A stretch of 24,000 nt of DNA from Nitrospirota bacterium (GTDB lineage: Bacteria; Nitrospirota; UBA9217). Positions within the stretch are counted from its first letter, which is position 1; each line of letters starts with the position of its first letter. Of this stretch, positions 6,070-13,891 are shown one piece after another. The notes beneath the pieces were generated by a model. The model was given only the letters and a program-made list of their open reading frames with translations. It had not been told where the DNA came from and searched no databases. The stretch is from positions 555,873 through 579,872 of the forward strand of contig CAWFSF010000005.1 of NCBI GenBank assembly GCA_963818475.1, given 5' to 3'. A program made the position numbers and the translations under genes.

Positions 6070-6219
6070 CTGCTGTGTAACAAAGACTTCCGAACTTCGA
6101 GACATATTTTTTCATACCGGAAAATAAAAGTCAAGAATTTTTATCTCCCGGACGGTTTGGACGAACGCCGGGCCTCTGGTGTATACTGTAAGGAAATCAC
6201 CGCATCAGGAAGGAGGATC

Positions 6220-8063
6220 ATGGCCGGAAAACGGACAGCAACCTTCGCAAGATCGGACAGACCACGTGGGACCTCACAGCCGCTGTTCAAAAACGACAGC
6301 GACCCGCTCATGGAGAAGAAGCGGAAGCGCGTTGAGAAGCAAAGCTACGCAGTTCATCAACGCCTGGAAGGACCGGACCGACTACCTGGAGGACCCGGTG
6401 GTGCTGCGCCAGGCCCTCGACCAGTACGAAGCATGGAAAGGCCGCTGCGGCACTGACGGCGACGAGGGATACTATTTCTGGCTCAGGACCCAGCAGGACC
6501 AGAACGATCCGAAGCTCAAGGCGCAGTTCAACAAGGTCGAGGCCTTCAGCAAGAAGATCGAGAACGACAGCCAGTTCTTTTATCTGCGCATCGCCCGGAT
6601 CAAGCCGGAACAGCAGCAGAAGTTCCTGCAGCACGAGTCGCTCCGGAAGTACCGCCACTTCCTGGAACGGGTCTTTGCGGAATCGCGGTTCCATCTGAGC
6701 GAACCCGAGGAAAAGATCCTGAACCTCAAGGCTTCGACGTCCTACGCCAACTGGACAAAGATGACCTCGGGCTTCCTGTCAAAAGAGGAGCGCGTCATTG
6801 TTGCCGAGGACGGGACCCGCAAACCGCGTCTCCTTTTCCGAGATCGTGGGGCTCATGAACAGCAGGACGCAAACCGGTCCGGGATGCGGCAGCCGCGGCC
6901 TTCAACGACATCCTGCACAAGCACGTGGAGGTTGCCGAGGCGGAGCTCAACTCGGTGCTCCAGAACAAGAAGATCGATGACGAGCTCCGGGGCACGTCGC
7001 GGCCCGACCAGCTGCGCCATCTGAGCGACGACATCGAGAGCGAGGTCGTGGACACGCTGATCGATTCCGTCTCGAGCCGGTTTACGATATCCTCCCGGTA
7101 CTACGCGCTCAAGGCAAAACTGCTGAAGATCAAAAAGCTCAAGTACCACGAACGGAACGTCGAGTACGGCGAAGTGGCAAAGAAGTACCCCTATCGCACG
7201 GCCGCTGAACCTCGTCCACTCCGTCATGAACAAGCTCGACCCGCAGTTCGGCAGGATCTTCGCCGGGTTCATCGAACACGGCCAGATCGACGCGCTCCCC
7301 AAAAAAGGCAAGGACAGCGGCGCGTTCTGCATCCACCATCTCATGACCCAGCCCACCTACATCCTGCTGAACCACACCGGCACGCTGCACGATGTGCTGA
7401 CCATCGCGCACGAACTGGGTCACGGCATCAACAACGAACTGATCCGTGAAAAGCAGCATGCCCTCGATTTCGGCACCCCGACCTCGACCGCCGAGGTGGC
7501 CAGCACCTTCATGGAGGACTTCGTGCTGGACGAGATCCTGCACACGGCCGACGACGAGCTGCGGCTTGCCATCATGATGCAGAAACTGAACGACGACGTC
7601 TCGTCCATCTTCAGGCAGGTGGCCTGCTATCGCTTCGAGCAGGAGCTGCACCGGGAATACCGCAAGCGGGGATATCTGTCCAAGGAGGAGATCGGGGCGC
7701 TCTTCAGCAAGCACATGGAAGCCTACATGGGACCTGCGGTGGAGCAGTCGGCCGGCGCCGAGAACTGGTGGGTCTACTGGAGCCACATCCGCTACTTCTT
7801 CTACGTCTATTCCTATGCAAGCGGACTTTTGATCTCCAAGTCGCTCCAGGCCGGGGTGAAGAAGGACCCGGCATACATCACGAAGGTAAAGGGTTTTCTT
7901 TCAGCAGGGCTGTCGGACTCCCCGAAGAACATCTTTCTGAAGCTCGGCGTTGACATCGCGGACAGACGAGTTCTGGGACCGGGGGCTGGATCAGGTGGAA
8001 AAGCTGTTGAATGAGACAGAGGCGCTGGCGAAGAAGATGGGGAAGATAAAGGCAGGCCGCTAG
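6220..8063 (+). pseudogene. pepF: M3B-family oligoendopeptidase F (PepF), fragmented by about 7 frameshifts
   Basis: The zinc motif HELGH is present in TIAHELGHGINNEL. PepF-like segments occur in all three plus frames. In order they are: MAGK.., then NLRKIGQTTWDLT, then PLFKNDSDPLMEKKRK, then FINAWKDRTDYLEDPVVLRQALDQYE...EPEEKILNLKASTSYANW, then VSFSEIVGLMNS, then RDAAAAAFNDILHKHVEVAEAEL...YHERNVEYGEVAKKYPY, then MNKLDPQFGRIFAGFIEHGQIDALPKKGKDSGAFC...SPKNIFLKLGVDIAD, then FWDRGLDQVEKLLNETEALAKKMGKIKAGR*. The total span of about 614 codons fits PepF. Confidence 0.9.
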
Positions 8064-8904: not shown

Positions 8905-10164
8905 CTACAACTCCCAGGGATAACCAATAAATATGCTCGGCGACACGCCTTCCCTGCCTGTCGCCACGTCGGCCCGAAACACGACGCCCGAGGCCGTGAC
9001 CATGCGCAGGCCTATGCCGGTTGTCGAGCGCCAGATGTCGCCCACCTCGCTCCGCAGGTCAGCAGTGCTCCCGAGCTCGTAGTAGAACGCAATCTGCCAG
9101 GCAGTTCTGATGTCTTTCATGATGAAAATATCGTAGGGCGTTGACTCGTCGGTCAGGTTCCACCGGATCTCCGTGCCGTAGAAGCGCGTGTGAGCGCCGG
9201 AGTAGCGGCCATTGGAATAGGACCTGAGACGGCTGAACCCACCGAGCGAACTGGCCGTGCCGTAGGTGTTGTTTGCGACCGTGTTTTTGACGACGTCATG
9301 GCAGCGCTGCCGCTCCGTAAGGTCGGCAATGGTATCGCAGGCAAGCCCCAGATCCGTTTCTACGTCAACAGGATTGATCTCCCCCTGTCGCCTGACATGG
9401 GCATCGGAGTGAAAATAGTTTAACGCCCAGGTACTGCGCCTGCCGAGTGGAACATAGCCGGTGAAGCTCATATCCTGAACATAAAAATCAGGCCCGGAGT
9501 CCCTGGGTGGGGTCAGTGACCGGCTGATGTCGAGCCGCACACCGCGCCGAGGGTCCGCGTAATCGTCGGTGAGGTCGACACGGGTGCCCAGAATCGTAAC
9601 ATGCCCCCGGTCCACCTGCGAGCTCTGGGTCTCAATAATAATGTTGCCGTCCCTGTTACGGATACTTTTTACCTGCGACCTTCCCTGGTAATAGGCGCCG
9701 TAGAGCTCAAACCTGCGTTCGAGAAACGTTGCAGTCATGCGCGAACCATAGTAGGTCATGTCGCCCAGTTCGATATTCGAATAATCGTTTTTGTCCGTGT
9801 TCATTCCCCGCTGGCTGTAGCTCTGGATCGTCGCCGAACTGATGCTGCTGAAACCGGTGTCGAGGAGCAGGGTATCCGGAATGACATGCACCTCTGCAAC
9901 GCCCAGGGCCAGACCAACGATATCTCCGCCAAAGGCCATGCCATAGGCATCGGCGTGCGTGCCTGCAAAGTTTCTGGCGCCCCCGACAAGGCCCAGCCCT
10001 GTCCCGATGCCGGGCAAGCTGTAGGGATAGGGAAAGAGCGCGTAGCCGAAATCGGTTGCGAATTGATCTTTACGGCGATCAGGGAAGATGGATGCTTCGG
10101 CCATACTGCCGAGGACGAGCGCAAGGACCACAAAAAACAAAAATCTCCGTACCTTTTTTTCCAT
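8905..10164 (-). CDS. Omp85/BamA-family outer-membrane beta-barrel (surface antigen D15 type) without recognisable POTRA domains
   Basis: The signal peptide is MEKKVRRFLFFVVLALVLGSMAEA. Omp85-like C-terminal motifs are SLGGFSRLRSYSNGRYSGAHTRFYGTEIRW and GIGLRMVTASGVVFRADVA. I chose the start at ATG 10164. The longer ORF start at 10227 lies inside repeat E7. Confidence 0.75.
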   Translation of the reverse strand: MEKKVRRFLFFVVLALVLGSMAEASIFPDRRKDQFATDFGYALFPYPYSLPGIGTGLGLVGGARNFAGTHADAYGMAFGGDIVGLALGVAEVHVIPDTLLLDTGFSSISSATIQSYSQRGMNTDKNDYSNIELGDMTYYGSRMTATFLERRFELYGAYYQGRSQVKSIRNRDGNIIIETQSSQVDRGHVTILGTRVDLTDDYADPRRGVRLDISRSLTPPRDSGPDFYVQDMSFTGYVPLGRRSTWALNYFHSDAHVRRQGEINPVDVETDLGLACDTIADLTERQRCHDVVKNTVANNTYGTASSLGGFSRLRSYSNGRYSGAHTRFYGTEIRWNLTDESTPYDIFIMKDIRTAWQIAFYYELGSTADLRSEVGDIWRSTTGIGLRMVTASGVVFRADVATGREGVSPSIFIGYPWEL

Positions 10165-10205
10165 CCCCCCACCTTCTTCGGATATACCGGGCTTTATTCT
10201 ATCAA

Positions 10206-10321
10206 CCACAAAATGCACAAAAATCACATAAAAAACAAGCGTACGCTTTTTTGAAATACCGCACCGGCGTGATGAAAGCTAAAATCGCGATTTATCTGTG
10301 TGACTTTTGTGCTTTCTGTGG
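10206..10321. repeat. Palindromic intergenic element (E7), CACAAAA-motif variant
   Basis: The arm CCACAAAATGCACAAAAATCACATAAA and the arm TTTATCTGTGTGACTTTTGTGCTTTCTGTGG are imperfect inverted repeats of about 27 bp. A central perfect palindrome AAGCGTACGCTT (10237-10248) is flanked by A and T runs. It may double as the terminator of hgcB. Confidence 0.6.
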
Positions 10322-10336
10322 CTAACCGCTGTAGGT

Positions 10337-10630
10337 TTATCCGCAGCAGCTGTTCCCCGTCCCGCTGCAATCACAGGACGGCGCGCCGCCGTAGATAAGG
10401 CTGTTGATGATGGCAGCGGCGCACCCCACGCCCGTACTCACCGTGATTGCGCCGAATTCGCAGTTTTTTGCGCAGGCGCCGCACTCCATGCAGCGGTCGC
10501 GGTCGGTGATGCTGGCGCGCTTGTCCTGCATGGCGAACACTGCGTGCGGACAGACCTCGACGCACCTGCCGCAGCCCGTGCATTTGTCGGAGAAAAACTG
10601 CAATGTCGATACGTTCGCGAGATATTTCAT
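10337..10630 (-). CDS. hgcB: Mercury-methylation ferredoxin HgcB (2x[4Fe-4S])
   Basis: There are two CX2CX2CX3C motifs, CTGCGRCVEVCP and CMECGACAKNCE. The conserved extra Cys is in GVGCAAAI, and the C-terminal vicinal pair is in ..NSCCG. The gene lies directly downstream of hgcA (12-nt gap, GGGAGG Shine-Dalgarno). I chose the start at MKYLANV (ATG 10630). Confidence 0.9.
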   Translation of the reverse strand: MKYLANVSTLQFFSDKCTGCGRCVEVCPHAVFAMQDKRASITDRDRCMECGACAKNCEFGAITVSTGVGCAAAIINSLIYGGAPSCDCSGTGNSCCG

Positions 10631-10642
10631 AGGACCTCCCAC

Positions 10643-11708
10643 TCACGGAGTTTGAACAAGCACCACCAGCAGCAGCGAAACCACCGTGATTATTATATAC
10701 AGCGGAATGCCGATCTTCAACTCTTTATTCACGCCGGACATGCCGGTGTAGGTGGTCGAGCCGGTGAACTGGAGCGCAATGTATGAGCTCAGGGCCGGAA
10801 AAAACAGGTAGATTGCTGCGAGCAGAAAGCGCGCTTTGTCCGGGAACGCCGGCCATTGCCTGCATGGTCAGAAACGTTATGAGCATGCCCATGATCCAGC
10901 CCTTGATCGCAAAGGAGCGGAAGGGAACGAAGGGCAGCAGGACCGGCGTCACGAAGGCGCCGGCAAACACCGCTGAAAGACCGAGCGCGAGGAACGGCAT
11001 GCCTCCCTGCCAGGCCTGCTTGAACAGAATTCCCGTTGGCGCAAGCCCGAAGAGCAGAAGCACGACTCCGGCGAACCAGGGATATTTCTTCATGATCGGA
11101 TTGATCTCCATGGGCGTAAGCACCAGCCGGTCGAGCAAAGAAAACCTGATCTCGCTCATTTCCTTCGTCTTTTTGTACCCTGCTGCAACATATGCCGGGA
11201 TGTCCCGCGCTTCCACCGGGCCGAAGGAGACCCGGAACCCTGTTTCCTTCTGGACTTTGGCTGCAGAGACGCCCACGGCCCCGAGCTGCGGCAGAATGAT
11301 GCGGCGGTGGCCGACCACGTCGCTGAGGCGGACAAGGCTGATCTGCCTGACCAGCTCGTCGGTCCCGAAGGTGCCCTTCCCTGCCGCGCACCAGACATTG
11401 ATGCTCTTCGTGTCGAGCACCAGGACCCAGGCATGCATTCCCTTGAGCGATTTCCGGACGATGTCGAAGCTCAGCTTGTAGTTCGCGGTCACAAAGACGT
11501 CGGAATCCTTTGTAGCTTCGCCCACGGCATAGAGCCCGGGCGGTACCGTGTAATGCATGCGATAGGCGCCGATACGGCTTTTGATCATGCCGAGCACATC
11601 GGCCTGCGACCAGTCGGACGAGACCCGCGAGACCGCACCTCCAGGAGTTTTAACACTGCCCGACACCCAGTGCGGGATCTCTTTTTTTATGAATGGAATG
11701 ATCTCCAT
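10643..11708 (-). CDS. hgcA: Mercury-methylation corrinoid protein HgcA; one frameshift in the C-terminal transmembrane domain
   Basis: The diagnostic cap-helix motif NVWCAAGK is at 11376-11399 (Cys107), followed by hydrophobic TM helices. The intact ORF is 10725..11708. After a shift near 10835-10845 a second frame continues with RFLLAAIYLFFPALSSYIALQFTGSTTYTGMSGVNKELKIGIPLYIIITVVSLLLVVLVQTP* and ends at 10643, just before the hgcB Shine-Dalgarno. Confidence 0.9.
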
Positions 11709-11722
11709 AAGGTCCTCCGATG

Positions 11723-12001
11723 CTACAGGATGTCCTTCATTACGGGCCCCAGCACCCCTTTGACCATCACTTCAAGGTTCTCCGCCTTGATCAGGGCGAT
11801 GCAGCAGATCTCGCCGTCCTTTTCCCAGCTCGTAACAGCGAACTTGTCGCCCGCCTTGATGCCCGCCCGGGCACGCAACTCCTTCGGCAGCACCATCTGC
11901 CCCCGTTCGTCGACCGTAATGATCGCCTCGACAGCGCAGCACCCGGCGCGCTTGTTCAGCGCGGTCTTTCCTGATCCTTTATCCTTCGCCGCCAGCACCA
12001 T
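11723..12001 (-). CDS. Small AbrB/MazE/SpoVT-type DNA-binding-domain protein with two vicinal Cys-Cys pairs, first gene of the hgc operon
   Basis: The SpoVT-AbrB signature is ITVDERGQMVLPKELRARAGIKAGDKFAV. The CC pairs are in RAGCCAVEA and GEICCIAL. I chose the start at MVLAAKDK (ATG 12001) because AAGGAGG lies 5 nt upstream. An alternative in-frame ATG is at 12025. The stop is 14 nt before the hgcA start, with a GGAGGA Shine-Dalgarno in between. Confidence 0.8.
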   Translation of the reverse strand: MVLAAKDKGSGKTALNKRAGCCAVEAIITVDERGQMVLPKELRARAGIKAGDKFAVTSWEKDGEICCIALIKAENLEVMVKGVLGPVMKDIL

Positions 12002-12048
12002 ACCCGCCTCCTTCTGCACGTCCATATCAGCACAATCTGATAAGTAAG

Positions 12049-12077
12049 AATATACTGATTTGTCCGTATTTTGTCAA
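12049..12077 (-). promoter_or_regulatory. Near-consensus sigma70 promoter of the AbrB-like-hgcA-hgcB operon
   Basis: The minus strand reads TTGACA (12072-12077), a 17-nt spacer, then TATATT (12049-12054). The short leader contains the inverted repeat ATCAG-attgtg-CTGAT (about 12026-12041), a possible operator. Confidence 0.6.
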
Positions 12078-12119: not shown

Positions 12120-12257
12120 CATTTGGACACGGATTAACACGGATAAGAGCCGGATAACGGCGGATTATTTCTTTTATAAGATGTTCACCCAATAGGTGAA
12201 TGCTTTAGAATTTATCCGCGTTAATCAGATGTTTCCGATTCTTCCGTGTCCAAATGC
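12120..12257. repeat. Palindromic MITE/REP-like intergenic element (E8)
   Basis: The terminal inverted repeats are a perfect 13 bp: CATTTGGACACGG (12120-12132) and CCGTGTCCAAATG (12245-12257). The arms hold tandem CGGATAA / TTATCCG units. The central hairpin is TTCACC-caata-GGTGAA. It is a close paralogue of the 8101-8242 copy. Confidence 0.8.
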
Positions 12258-12556: not shown

Positions 12557-13765
12557 TTACCGGTCCCTATGGATAGCATCATAGGGCTCTCGTTGGATGC
12601 TCTTTACCGCCGGATAGAGGACTGCCGCAGCGCCCGAGAGCAGCATGAGCAGAAAGCAGGCGAGGCCGATCGTCCCGATCATCGCGTACGATGGCCACAG
12701 GAACTGGATATTGCCCAGATAGACGATGATCTGCTGCTTGAACTTGACAATGAAGATCCATGCCAGGCCGATGCCCGCGGCCCCGCCGGTTCCCGTTAGC
12801 AGTACCGCCTCGGTAACGAGCAGCCGGAGCACGTGCATCCTGGTGGCGCCCATTGCCCGCAGAATGCCGAGTTCCCGTTCCCGCTCGTTCACGGTCATGG
12901 CGAACACCAGCCCCATCATGATCAGCAGCATAAACCAGAAGATCACGCCCACGGCAAAAACGCCCCAAAGCGCAGACGAGACGTCCTTGCGCACAGCAAT
13001 AATGAAGTCCTTGGTGACGATCGCTTTAAGATCAGGCAAGGCTGCCTCTATCGACCGGCCCACCGCATGGATGTCGTAAGCCGGAGCAACGCGCACCAGG
13101 ACCGACGATATCTGCCTACTGTTAACATTGAGAGGAACCCGCAATATCGTCTTCGAGTGCTCGATCATATCGCCGGCCGCGTCGATAGTCATGAAGACGG
13201 AACGATCCAGCAAGCCAAGGCCTGTGGGATGTAGTACCGCACCGATCCGGAATTGCTTGCCATAATACATCATTTCCTTGCTAGTTACATAGGCGAGGCT
13301 CGAGCCGATCGTCACGGGATCGTCGTTTTCATTTCCTTTGCGCGGACTAATGGCAGACCGAATCCAGGGCGATATGGTAAAATCCGTATCAGGGTCGTAT
13401 CCCACGAGGAGCGTCAGGGGAGTGCCGCAGCAAGCAAGCCTCGCTGAAGTCATAAAGAGTTGAGGTGACGCCTTGGCGACCCCTTGCACAGCAGCGACGG
13501 CAGCGAGATTCTTTCGGTCCATGTAAAAACTTGTCGGTTCCCCGGCAAGCAGGATTTTCCGGCTTGCAGCCACATGCGCGGCGGGTACGACCATAATGTC
13601 AGCGCCAAGCCGCTCCATGCCGAGCTCAACACTCCCCTCAACCGCTTTCAGGACCGTTGTGGCGCTGAAGAAGAATCCACTGGCGAGGGCGGCTGCAAAA
13701 ATGATGGCTATGCTTCTGACGCGCTTACGGAGAAGATTTTTCAAGGCTAATTTACATAGTGTCAT
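12557..13765 (-). CDS. FtsX/MacB-type ABC transporter permease (4 TM, large periplasmic domain); no ATPase gene adjacent
   Basis: The N-terminus LALKNLLRKRVRSIAIIFAAALASGFFF is typical of FtsX-like permeases. A periplasmic stretch of about 230 aa follows, and then a C-terminal three-TM FtsX module containing ERERELGILRAMGATRMHVLRLLVTEAVLL. I chose the start at MTLCKLAL (ATG 13765). Confidence 0.85.
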   Translation of the reverse strand: MTLCKLALKNLLRKRVRSIAIIFAAALASGFFFSATTVLKAVEGSVELGMERLGADIMVVPAAHVAASRKILLAGEPTSFYMDRKNLAAVAAVQGVAKASPQLFMTSARLACCGTPLTLLVGYDPDTDFTISPWIRSAISPRKGNENDDPVTIGSSLAYVTSKEMMYYGKQFRIGAVLHPTGLGLLDRSVFMTIDAAGDMIEHSKTILRVPLNVNSRQISSVLVRVAPAYDIHAVGRSIEAALPDLKAIVTKDFIIAVRKDVSSALWGVFAVGVIFWFMLLIMMGLVFAMTVNERERELGILRAMGATRMHVLRLLVTEAVLLTGTGGAAGIGLAWIFIVKFKQQIIVYLGNIQFLWPSYAMIGTIGLACFLLMLLSGAAAVLYPAVKSIQREPYDAIHRDR

Positions 13766-13891
13766 ATAAATACACGTCCATAAAAAAAGAATAAGTTCGT
13801 CTTCGCAAACCATTTAGAAAGACGTAACGTTTGCGGAGCGATCAGGTTGCTAGTATACCTGTTTTACCGGCTCTCGAGTCAAATTTTCACT

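Follow-up and report, generated by a model that had tools for sequence, protein, structure and literature searches.

A cysteine-rich AbrB-type protein encoded upstream of hgcAB and arsM: candidate autoregulator with a conserved, phased putative operator and a possible role in metal(loid) sensing

The 24,000-nt stretch of DNA analysed here (the window; positions 555,873 to 579,872 of contig CAWFSF010000005.1, assembly GCA_963818475.1, from a Nitrospirota bacterium) carries on its minus strand the genes hgcA and hgcB, directly preceded by a small gene, hgcC, whose product HgcC (MVLAAKDKGSGKTALNKRAGCCAVEAIITVDERGQMVLPKELRARAGIKAGDKFAVTSWEKDGEICCIALIKAENLEVMVKGVLGPVMKDIL) is the subject of this report. 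The gene order is hgcC-hgcA-hgcB, with a gap of 14 nt between the stop of hgcC (11723) and the start of hgcA (11708) on the same strand, and hgcA is probably co-transcribed with hgcC (Table 1). The ATG at 12001 was taken as the start of hgcC because it is preceded by the Shine-Dalgarno motif AAGGAGG and because the N-termini of the homologues, which are 90-94 aa long and begin with MV or MT, are equivalent to a start at this position. A longer reading frame of 100 aa from an ATG at 12025 was rejected, as it has no Shine-Dalgarno motif, abuts the edge of the repeat array described below and does not fit the homologous N-termini. Exact-sequence look-ups of the 92-aa and the 100-aa product returned no matching record, and among the matches listed the closest genomic match to HgcC comes from a Nitrospirae metagenome-assembled genome (MAG), with 91% identity.

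Table 1. Features of the hgcC-hgcA-hgcB locus, with positions given in the window.
Feature	Position	Strand	Description and evidence
hgcC coding sequence	11723..12001	-	ATG 12001, stop codon 11723-11725; 92 aa plus stop; AbrB/MazE swapped-hairpin family; NCBIfam NF040962 member
Shine-Dalgarno AAGGAGG	12007..12013	-	5 nt ahead of the hgcC ATG; read from the sequence
Cys21-Cys22 codons (N-proximal pair, RAGCCAVEA)	11936..11941	-	start of strand 1; sequence and AlphaFold2 (AF2) model
Cys66-Cys67 codons (GEICCIAL)	11801..11806	-	strand 4
Conserved C-terminal helix	11726..11785	-	residues 73-92, NLExMVKGxLGPxMKDIL; AF2 helix 73-91 with predicted local confidence (pLDDT) ~80-89; column conservation
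Sigma-70-type promoter TTGACA-17-TATATT	12049..12077	-	11/12 consensus matches; -10 overlaps operator sites 1 and 2
Candidate operator array	12027..12058	-	four pentamers, 9-nt phase; family consensus TCWGA
Array site 1, TCAGT	12058-12054	-	
Array site 2, TCTTA	12049-12045	-	
Array site 3, TCAGA	12040-12036	-	
Array site 4, GCTGA	12031-12027	-	
Inverted repeat ATCAG-N6-CTGAT	12026..12041		array sites 3 and 4; 1 match in the 24-kb window versus 0.01 expected (shuffles)
hgcA	10725..11708	-	corrinoid protein; NF040863 339.3 bits, cutoff 275; cap-helix motif NVWCAAGK
hgcB	10337..10642	-	2x[4Fe-4S] ferredoxin, C-terminal CC; NF040864 126.1 bits, cutoff 99

With respect to its fold family, HgcC is an AbrB-type protein, as stated already in the original prediction, which had been made from the sequence of the window alone. 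It matches PF04014 (E=3.8e-7; 30.4 bits, gathering cutoff 24.7) as well as the AbrB domain model TIGR01439 (E=2.9e-10; 39.7 bits, cutoff 28.3), and a profile of its family hits, with E ~5e-5, SpoVT, AbrB and other AbrB-family regulators of solved structure. Whether the family had been catalogued as hgcAB-associated was left open in that prediction, and this is the case: with 118.3 bits (E=9.2e-35, cutoff 70) over model positions 1-70 of 70 the window gene is a further member of the named family HgcC, the NCBIfam equivalog NF040962 ('near_HgcAB / HgcAB-associated protein HgcC'), whose link to hgcAB is already published. In particular, a gene annotated as prlF, abrB or mazE was described by Zhang et al. 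2023 (ISME Commun, PMC10349881) directly upstream of hgcA on 39% of hgcAB contigs and in 8 of 31 confirmed methylators, and was proposed to be a putative, mainly archaeal regulator of hgcAB tied to a toxin-antitoxin system, a framing repeated by a 2026 paper. For such a gene next to hgcA the literature searches led only to Zhang et al. 2023. They found no paper pairing the name HgcC with hgcA, and a search for arsM together with an AbrB-like, SpoVT or MazE gene returned no linking paper, the 'MazE' hits referring to Methanosarcina mazei.

Following the automatic annotation and PMC10349881, HgcC would be a type II antitoxin of the MazE/PrlF kind, with hgcAB being co-regulated by a toxin-antitoxin module. 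The Pfam family matched is named MazE_antitoxin and many homologues carry the JGI label 'antitoxin PrlF'; PF04014, however, spans the whole AbrB/SpoVT/MazE superfamily and hence has no antitoxin implication, and the curated models stay far below their cutoffs (MazE NF050106, 17.6 bits versus 65; TIGR02609, 17.3 versus 55.9). In addition, clustering of the open reading frames (ORFs) around 158 homologous loci gave no conserved toxin-like neighbour, and the flanks in the window are hgcA and an FtsX-like permease, so that an antitoxin role is considered highly improbable.

The family is large and widely distributed. At E <=1e-3 there are 2137 homologues; clustering at 50% identity reduces them to 434 groups, of which 222 reach E <=1e-10. 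A scan of one genome per species yielded at least 599 pattern matches, 598 of which are confirmed relatives. Among the matches listed are Nitrospirota, Thermodesulfobacteriota, Dehalococcoidia, Methanoperedens, Methanomicrobia, Methanocellales, Thermoplasmatota, Aminicenantia, Zixibacteria, Spirochaetota and others, all of them anaerobes. Residues D31, G34, Q35, P39 and R43 are invariant and R33 and K40 are at least 90% conserved; judging from the alignment to SpoVT and AbrB, these residues probably belong to the DNA-contacting loop and helix of AbrB-type proteins. As no match to HTH_5 (PF01022) was found in HgcC and its fold is that of AbrB, it does not belong to the ArsR/SmtB family, although it may work like an ArsR.

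The genomic context was assessed at the best 80 genomic and the best 80 metagenomic matches to two query profiles, which do not represent a random census of the family, the metagenome scan having been deliberately seeded with a cysteine-poor member. The next gene downstream is arsM at 43 and hgcA at 35 of the genomic loci (contig end 2, other 0), and arsM at 48 and hgcA at 20 of the metagenomic loci (contig end 9, other 3). Combined, the 160 loci comprise 91 with arsM, 55 with hgcA, 11 contig ends and three others, and arsM or hgcA is therefore the next gene at 146 of the 149 resolvable loci (98%). The arsM-class products are 265-290 aa long, and all 14 that were tested pass the NCBIfam arsenite methyltransferase model (333-365 bits, cutoff 263). 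With 120-131 bits the arsM-linked proteins score above the window protein in NF040962 itself, and the name HgcC describes the family only in part. The hgcA- and arsM-linked proteins are intermixed in a neighbour-joining tree, with 65 of 79 nearest neighbours sharing the same context; for instance, the arsM-linked protein of locus L064 is sister to the hgcA-linked L052 and L074, the hgcA-linked L012 groups with the arsM-linked L036 and L039, and L063 (hgcA) is paired with L073 (arsM).

Of the ORFs of at least 70 aa that were clustered around the 158 loci, only hgcC, arsM, hgcA and hgcB are widely conserved, with ArsR (9 loci), the ArsP permease (6 loci) and an ACR3/SBF-type transporter (5 loci) recurring less often. 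The FtsX-like permease upstream of hgcC in the window was discarded as a conserved partner, being seen at 0 of the 80 genomic loci. No ars genes were found among the 16 window ORFs scanned, and tblastn gave no arsM in the window. At the three loci with another context the next genes code for C_GCAxxG_C_C redox proteins or an FAD/CCG oxidoreductase, and of two members chosen as cysteine-poor one precedes a ferredoxin and an aldehyde:ferredoxin oxidoreductase (AOR), the other an uncharacterised 675-aa protein for which no Pfam or NCBIfam match was obtained. The family is thus not specific for hgcAB, and in the sampled loci it is linked to arsM more often than to hgcA.

Repeats of the form ATCTGAT / TTCAGAA were first spotted by eye in the aligned upstream regions and then quantified. 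Within the 100 nt upstream of the 80 genomic homologues the pentamer TCWGA reaches a density of 2.16 per 100 nt as compared to 0.16 in the rest of the loci (13.5-fold), with values of 2.11 for hgcA-linked and 2.19 for arsM-linked copies, and the gaps between sites are nearly always 9 nt (59 cases) or 18 nt (30). An independent metagenomic set of 75 loci gave 1.81 versus 0.159 per 100 nt (11.4-fold) and gaps of 9 nt (43), 18 nt (15) and 27 nt (6). For the double site TCWGA-N4-TCWGA there are 60 occurrences ahead of the homologues' own genes and four in ~500 kb elsewhere; the array is conserved across many phyla, in bacteria as well as in archaea. The pentamer is palindromic, so that its sites can be read as direct or as inverted repeats.

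The array of the window extends from the -10 hexamer into the leader, and its phased three-site score is the highest in the whole 24 kb. The inverted repeat ATCAG-N6-CTGAT, which the original prediction had put forward as a candidate operator, coincides with two of its sites and can now be regarded as part of a conserved putative operator. The same layout from TTGACA to the array is seen at homologous loci, where the array is placed between the promoter elements or on top of them, and its position over the -10 element and the start site would imply repression. A reading of the repeat as an mRNA hairpin or riboswitch was dismissed, because the pentamers are often direct repeats and keep a strict 9-nt phase at homologous loci, and Rfam gave nothing there. 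The 555-nt intergenic region that holds the hgcC promoter contains another double site, with one mismatch, some 180 nt further upstream at 12225-12238 (TCAGATGTTTCCGA). This site, which may serve as an auxiliary operator or be fortuitous, overlaps two repeats, one direct and of 13 nt (12173-12185, 12221-12233), the other inverted, imperfect and of 20 nt (12153-12172, 12207-12226). It is also the sole other near-match to the double site in the window, and a wider HgcC regulon within the window was accordingly discounted. In the 82-nt gap between hgcA and hgcB there is a promoter-like sequence on the minus strand (TTGAAG-17-TATAAT, 10/12 matches, 10692-10720), which might permit separate transcription of hgcB.

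One locus bears on whether the regulator can act on a second operon. In L052 (Syntrophales MAG JALNVY010000023) an arsM gene lies 3.3 kb beyond hgcC-hgcA-hgcB and carries a TTGACA promoter and a TCTGA-N4-TCTGA operator of its own (L052:7370-7520), the two together being ~70% identical over 56 nt to those of the sister arsM-linked locus L064. In place of a regulator gene there is a 10-codon ORF (MVKEDQKKEE*), and the locus looks like one from which the regulator copy was deleted while the operator was retained. This single case is suggestive of a regulator that acts in trans and serves both operons.

The two vicinal cysteine pairs that had been pointed out in the original prediction are present and are kept in 120 of the 120 closest homologues. 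In 150 cluster representatives at no more than 50% identity, cysteine occupies the four pair columns in 88, 105, 118 and 134 sequences, and homologues without the N-proximal CC usually have other N-terminal cysteine patterns instead (CxC, C-x3-C or an extra CC). The strand-4 pair follows the genomic context, being complete in 55/55 hgcA-linked and 84/91 arsM-linked members (the remaining seven having xC), that is in 139 of 146, and in none of the three members from other contexts (YC, YC and HC). The N-proximal pair is CC in 28 and xC in 25 of 55 hgcA-linked proteins, so that at least the second cysteine is present in 53; in the arsM-linked proteins the respective numbers are 76, 10 and 86 of 88. 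A distal second cysteine cluster is commoner in arsM-linked copies. Nearly all linked members thus combine an N-proximal cysteine with the strand-4 CC, i.e., the three or more conserved thiolates co-varying with a metal regulon that would be expected of a sensor class. The pattern supports the view that the cysteines are functionally constrained and track the context of metal(loid) methylation. Members with an incomplete cysteine set (L082/L083, L129, L152 and L081) are found to keep the TCWGA array. As members in other contexts still carry the array, DNA specificity would appear to be family-wide, the full thiol set going with metal(loid) methylation.

The homologue search that had been suggested for scoring the conservation of the pairs and their proximity to hgcA hence gave a divided answer: the cysteines are kept, but the homologues lie mostly away from hgcAB, which speaks against a role specific for HgcAB. 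The same holds for the suggestion that HgcC hands Hg(II) over to HgcAB, given that 91 of the 149 resolvable loci precede arsM and 55 hgcA and that both types are intermixed in the tree.

In a broader form, HgcC might be a metal(loid) chaperone that captures Hg(II) or As(III) and passes it to HgcAB or ArsM, DNA binding being secondary. ArsD provides a parallel: a weak repressor in its first description, it was later described to be a chaperone. The conserved cysteines, the N-terminal tail with variable extra cysteines, the conserved C-terminal helix as a possible docking element, and the fact that HgcAB and ArsM both take thiolate-bound substrates, HgcB itself ending in CC, would fit such a role. 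It is hard, however, to square specific docking with a lineage that switches between the unrelated SAM-dependent ArsM and the corrinoid protein HgcA, and the invariant residues of the AbrB DNA-binding loop and helix, the conserved operator overlapping the promoter and the arsM gene of L052 with an operator only all point to control of transcription; a chaperone is thus an improbable alternative.

A monomer model of HgcC was obtained with AF2 from an alignment of 135 sequences (pLDDT 77). In this model residues 1-17 are disordered, residues 20-29, 53-61 and 64-72 form strands and residues 40-46 and 73-91 helices, so that Cys21-22 and Cys66-67 each lie within a strand. The C-terminal helix (residues 73-92) is absent from classical AbrB N-domains and may mediate oligomerisation.

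These data also bear on the simplest alternative, i.e., that HgcC sets the level of its operon without sensing a ligand and that its cysteines are structural. That the second strand-4 cysteine is universal, other contexts included, is what would be expected of a core residue, and the location of the CC residues inside beta strands in the model is compatible with this, whereas the first strand-4 cysteine goes missing exactly where the context is neither arsM nor hgcA, and the N-terminal tail, of low confidence and probably flexible, bears persistent but variable clusters (CC, CxC, CC-x6-10-CC) that are typical of ligand sites. A plain autoregulator of this kind is accordingly judged a little less probable even than a chaperone.

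The reading favoured here has two parts of different strength. Firstly, HgcC is very likely a DNA-binding autoregulator of the hgcC-hgcAB operon that acts at the phased TCWGA array (probability about 0.85, based on comparative sequence evidence). As a dimer or higher oligomer it would bind pentamers 9 bp apart and, with the array lying over the -10 element and the transcribed leader, would repress hgcC-hgcA-hgcB. Secondly, and with roughly even odds (about 0.5), its thiols may sense a soft metal(loid), which would make HgcC the functional counterpart of the ArsR-type repressors heading other hgcAB and arsM operons. In this case the thiolate cluster formed by Cys21-Cys22 at the start of strand 1 and Cys66-Cys67 on strand 4 would be the sensor, and a soft thiophilic metal(loid) would lower the affinity of HgcC for DNA and thereby de-repress the operon. 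As(III) or methyl-As(III) would be as likely a trigger as Hg(II), and thiol oxidation a less likely one. Since most family members precede arsM, the odds for an arsenic species as the ligand are no lower than those for Hg(II). The Hg(II)- or redox-responsive thiol autoregulator of the original prediction is therefore retained with respect to autoregulation, with which the conserved operator and the fold are consistent; as its ligand, Hg(II) is no better supported than arsenic, because arsM-linked loci predominate (91 versus 55 with hgcA) and are interspersed among the hgcA-linked ones in the tree.

Several points weigh against this reading. Metal binding, the direction of regulation and the coupling of the thiols to DNA binding are steps that we infer from sequence comparison. 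The second strand-4 cysteine is found in 160 of 160 members, even outside metal contexts, and thus may be structural. In addition, neighbouring residues of a strand face opposite sides, so that the two cysteines of a CC pair may be unable to chelate jointly, and a chelation site would have to combine cysteines of different strands or subunits. A Foldseek search of the AF2 monomer against the PDB gave no match at E<1; this uninformative result and the missing second strand of the model are to be expected, because the fold exists only as an interleaved dimer. Finally, the members in other contexts and the one linked to AOR adjoin redox enzymes and keep the operator, which a general redox or thiol signal would fit equally well.

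The last point leads to the strongest competitor, in which HgcC would still be an autorepressor at TCWGA sites but its cysteines, perhaps with an Fe-S cluster, would report redox state or oxygen through a thiol-disulfide switch, such that the methylation genes, which are confined to anaerobes, would be expressed in reducing conditions only. Besides the redox neighbours just mentioned, this is in line with the restriction of the family to anaerobic lineages among the matches listed and with a precedent for cysteine control of an AbrB-type protein, the glutathionylation of AbrB2 in Synechocystis (Sakr et al. 2013, as cited in PMC4307280). A general redox signal offers no reason, though, for metal(loid) methyltransferase systems in particular to follow at 98% of the sampled loci, and the members in redox contexts are just those without the full strand-4 CC. 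Redox sensing is therefore regarded as unlikely, if somewhat less so than a chaperone.

A further generalisation may be drawn, which is tentative and held with somewhat less than even confidence: HgcC-like proteins would represent an unrecognised structural class of metal(loid)-sensing transcription factors built on the AbrB fold instead of those of ArsR, MerR, CsoR and other known types, and a single interchangeable cassette of regulator and operator, consisting of a cysteine-rich AbrB protein and a 9-bp-phased TCWGA array, would control arsM and hgcAB across anaerobic bacteria and archaea.

The remainder of the window contains some features of separate interest. The hgc operon is flanked on the minus strand by genes for an Omp85-family outer-membrane protein (8905-10227) downstream and for the FtsX-like permease (12557-13813) upstream. 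Further upstream, a minus-strand ORF of 751 aa (13949-16204) has a lipoprotein-like N-terminus, a glycine run and an internal tandem duplication of ~980 nt, the halves of which are 75-90% identical in DNA; only faint PD40/beta-propeller matches were obtained for it. On the same strand, 5735-6145 matches the Rfam cspA thermoregulator RF01766 (79.1 bits, gathering score 78), which suggests a cold-shock protein gene with a long 5' untranslated region. An oligopeptidase F is split over two plus-strand ORFs, Peptidase_M3_N at 6179-7024 and the catalytic Peptidase_M3 at 7226-8014, and this could reflect a frameshift, a pseudogene or an assembly error.

The control and purpose of hgcAB are long-standing questions in mercury biogeochemistry, and hgcAB abundance is a poor predictor of methylmercury production. 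Earlier evidence for a connection between arsenic and hgcAB came mainly from the ArsR-like regulator of one Desulfovibrionaceae lineage. With HgcC there is a second, unrelated regulator family that is near-exclusive to arsM and hgcAB operons and has one operator and conserved thiols, and this provides independent comparative evidence that the two metal(loid) methylation systems are regulated alike. If the shared AbrB sensor cassette proves true, hgcAB would fall inside an arsenic or soft-metal response regulon, which would give a handle on the environmental signal for mercury methylation. Of the current names, 'HgcAB-associated' and 'antitoxin PrlF', each is misleading for some of the members. 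With a defined DNA site and a short protein, the regulator hypothesis is directly testable.

As regards known systems, the gene covered by NF040962 and PMC10349881 belongs to the same family as the window protein and occupies the same place directly upstream of hgcA. An association with arsM, an operator and the cysteines are missing from both sources, and 'cysteine' does not occur as a word in PMC10349881; while the latter frames the gene as archaeal, the window copy comes from a Nitrospirota bacterium and the family has no conserved toxin partner. Compared with the sources searched, three observations appear to be new: that the association with arsM predominates, that the operator is shared, and that the cysteines go with the context. 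AbrB, SpoVT and the archaeal AbrB-family regulators (5itj, 2l66) have the N-terminal DNA-binding domain and its signature in common with HgcC, but the classical AbrB/SpoVT members have neither cysteine pairs nor a link to metals, whereas HgcC has a cysteine-bearing N-terminal tail and a C-terminal helix of its own; likewise, AbrB sites are loosely defined and the predicted sites of HgcC form a sharply phased array of pentamers. In its mode of DNA recognition the predicted system resembles MraZ, an AbrB-superfamily repressor whose own promoter is overlapped by the short, regularly phased repeats that it binds. Each MraZ chain contains two AbrB-like repeats, the protein assembles into large rings, and its DNA repeats are direct with a period of ~10 nt; HgcC, in contrast, consists of a single domain and fails the MraZ model NF001476 (17.7 bits, cutoff 162).

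With respect to the cysteines, vicinal Cys-Cys pairs are the arsenic ligands in ArsD and in the MAs(III)-selective ArsR of Shewanella, i.e., in a regulator or chaperone of ars operons, although these proteins have folds unrelated to that of HgcC and no sequence similarity to it. An AbrB-type regulator controlled via cysteine is known in cyAbrB2 of Synechocystis, where glutathionylation is involved according to Sakr et al. 2013 as cited in PMC4307280; cyAbrB2 differs from HgcC in having a single cysteine and a C-terminal AbrB domain, in being a redox and not a metal sensor, and in its regulon. A positional analogue is found in Pseudodesulfovibrio mercurii ND132, where an ArsR-like repressor, ArsR2, is co-transcribed with hgcAB and responds to arsenic (bioRxiv 10.1101/2022.10.17.512643). 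ArsR2 also responds to S-adenosylhomocysteine. Both proteins are encoded by the first gene of an operon with hgcAB, and the logic expected of HgcC would be that of ArsR/SmtB-type repressors, a cysteine-thiolate sensor that de-represses on arsenic, but implemented in an AbrB swapped hairpin instead of the winged helix-turn-helix of ArsR.

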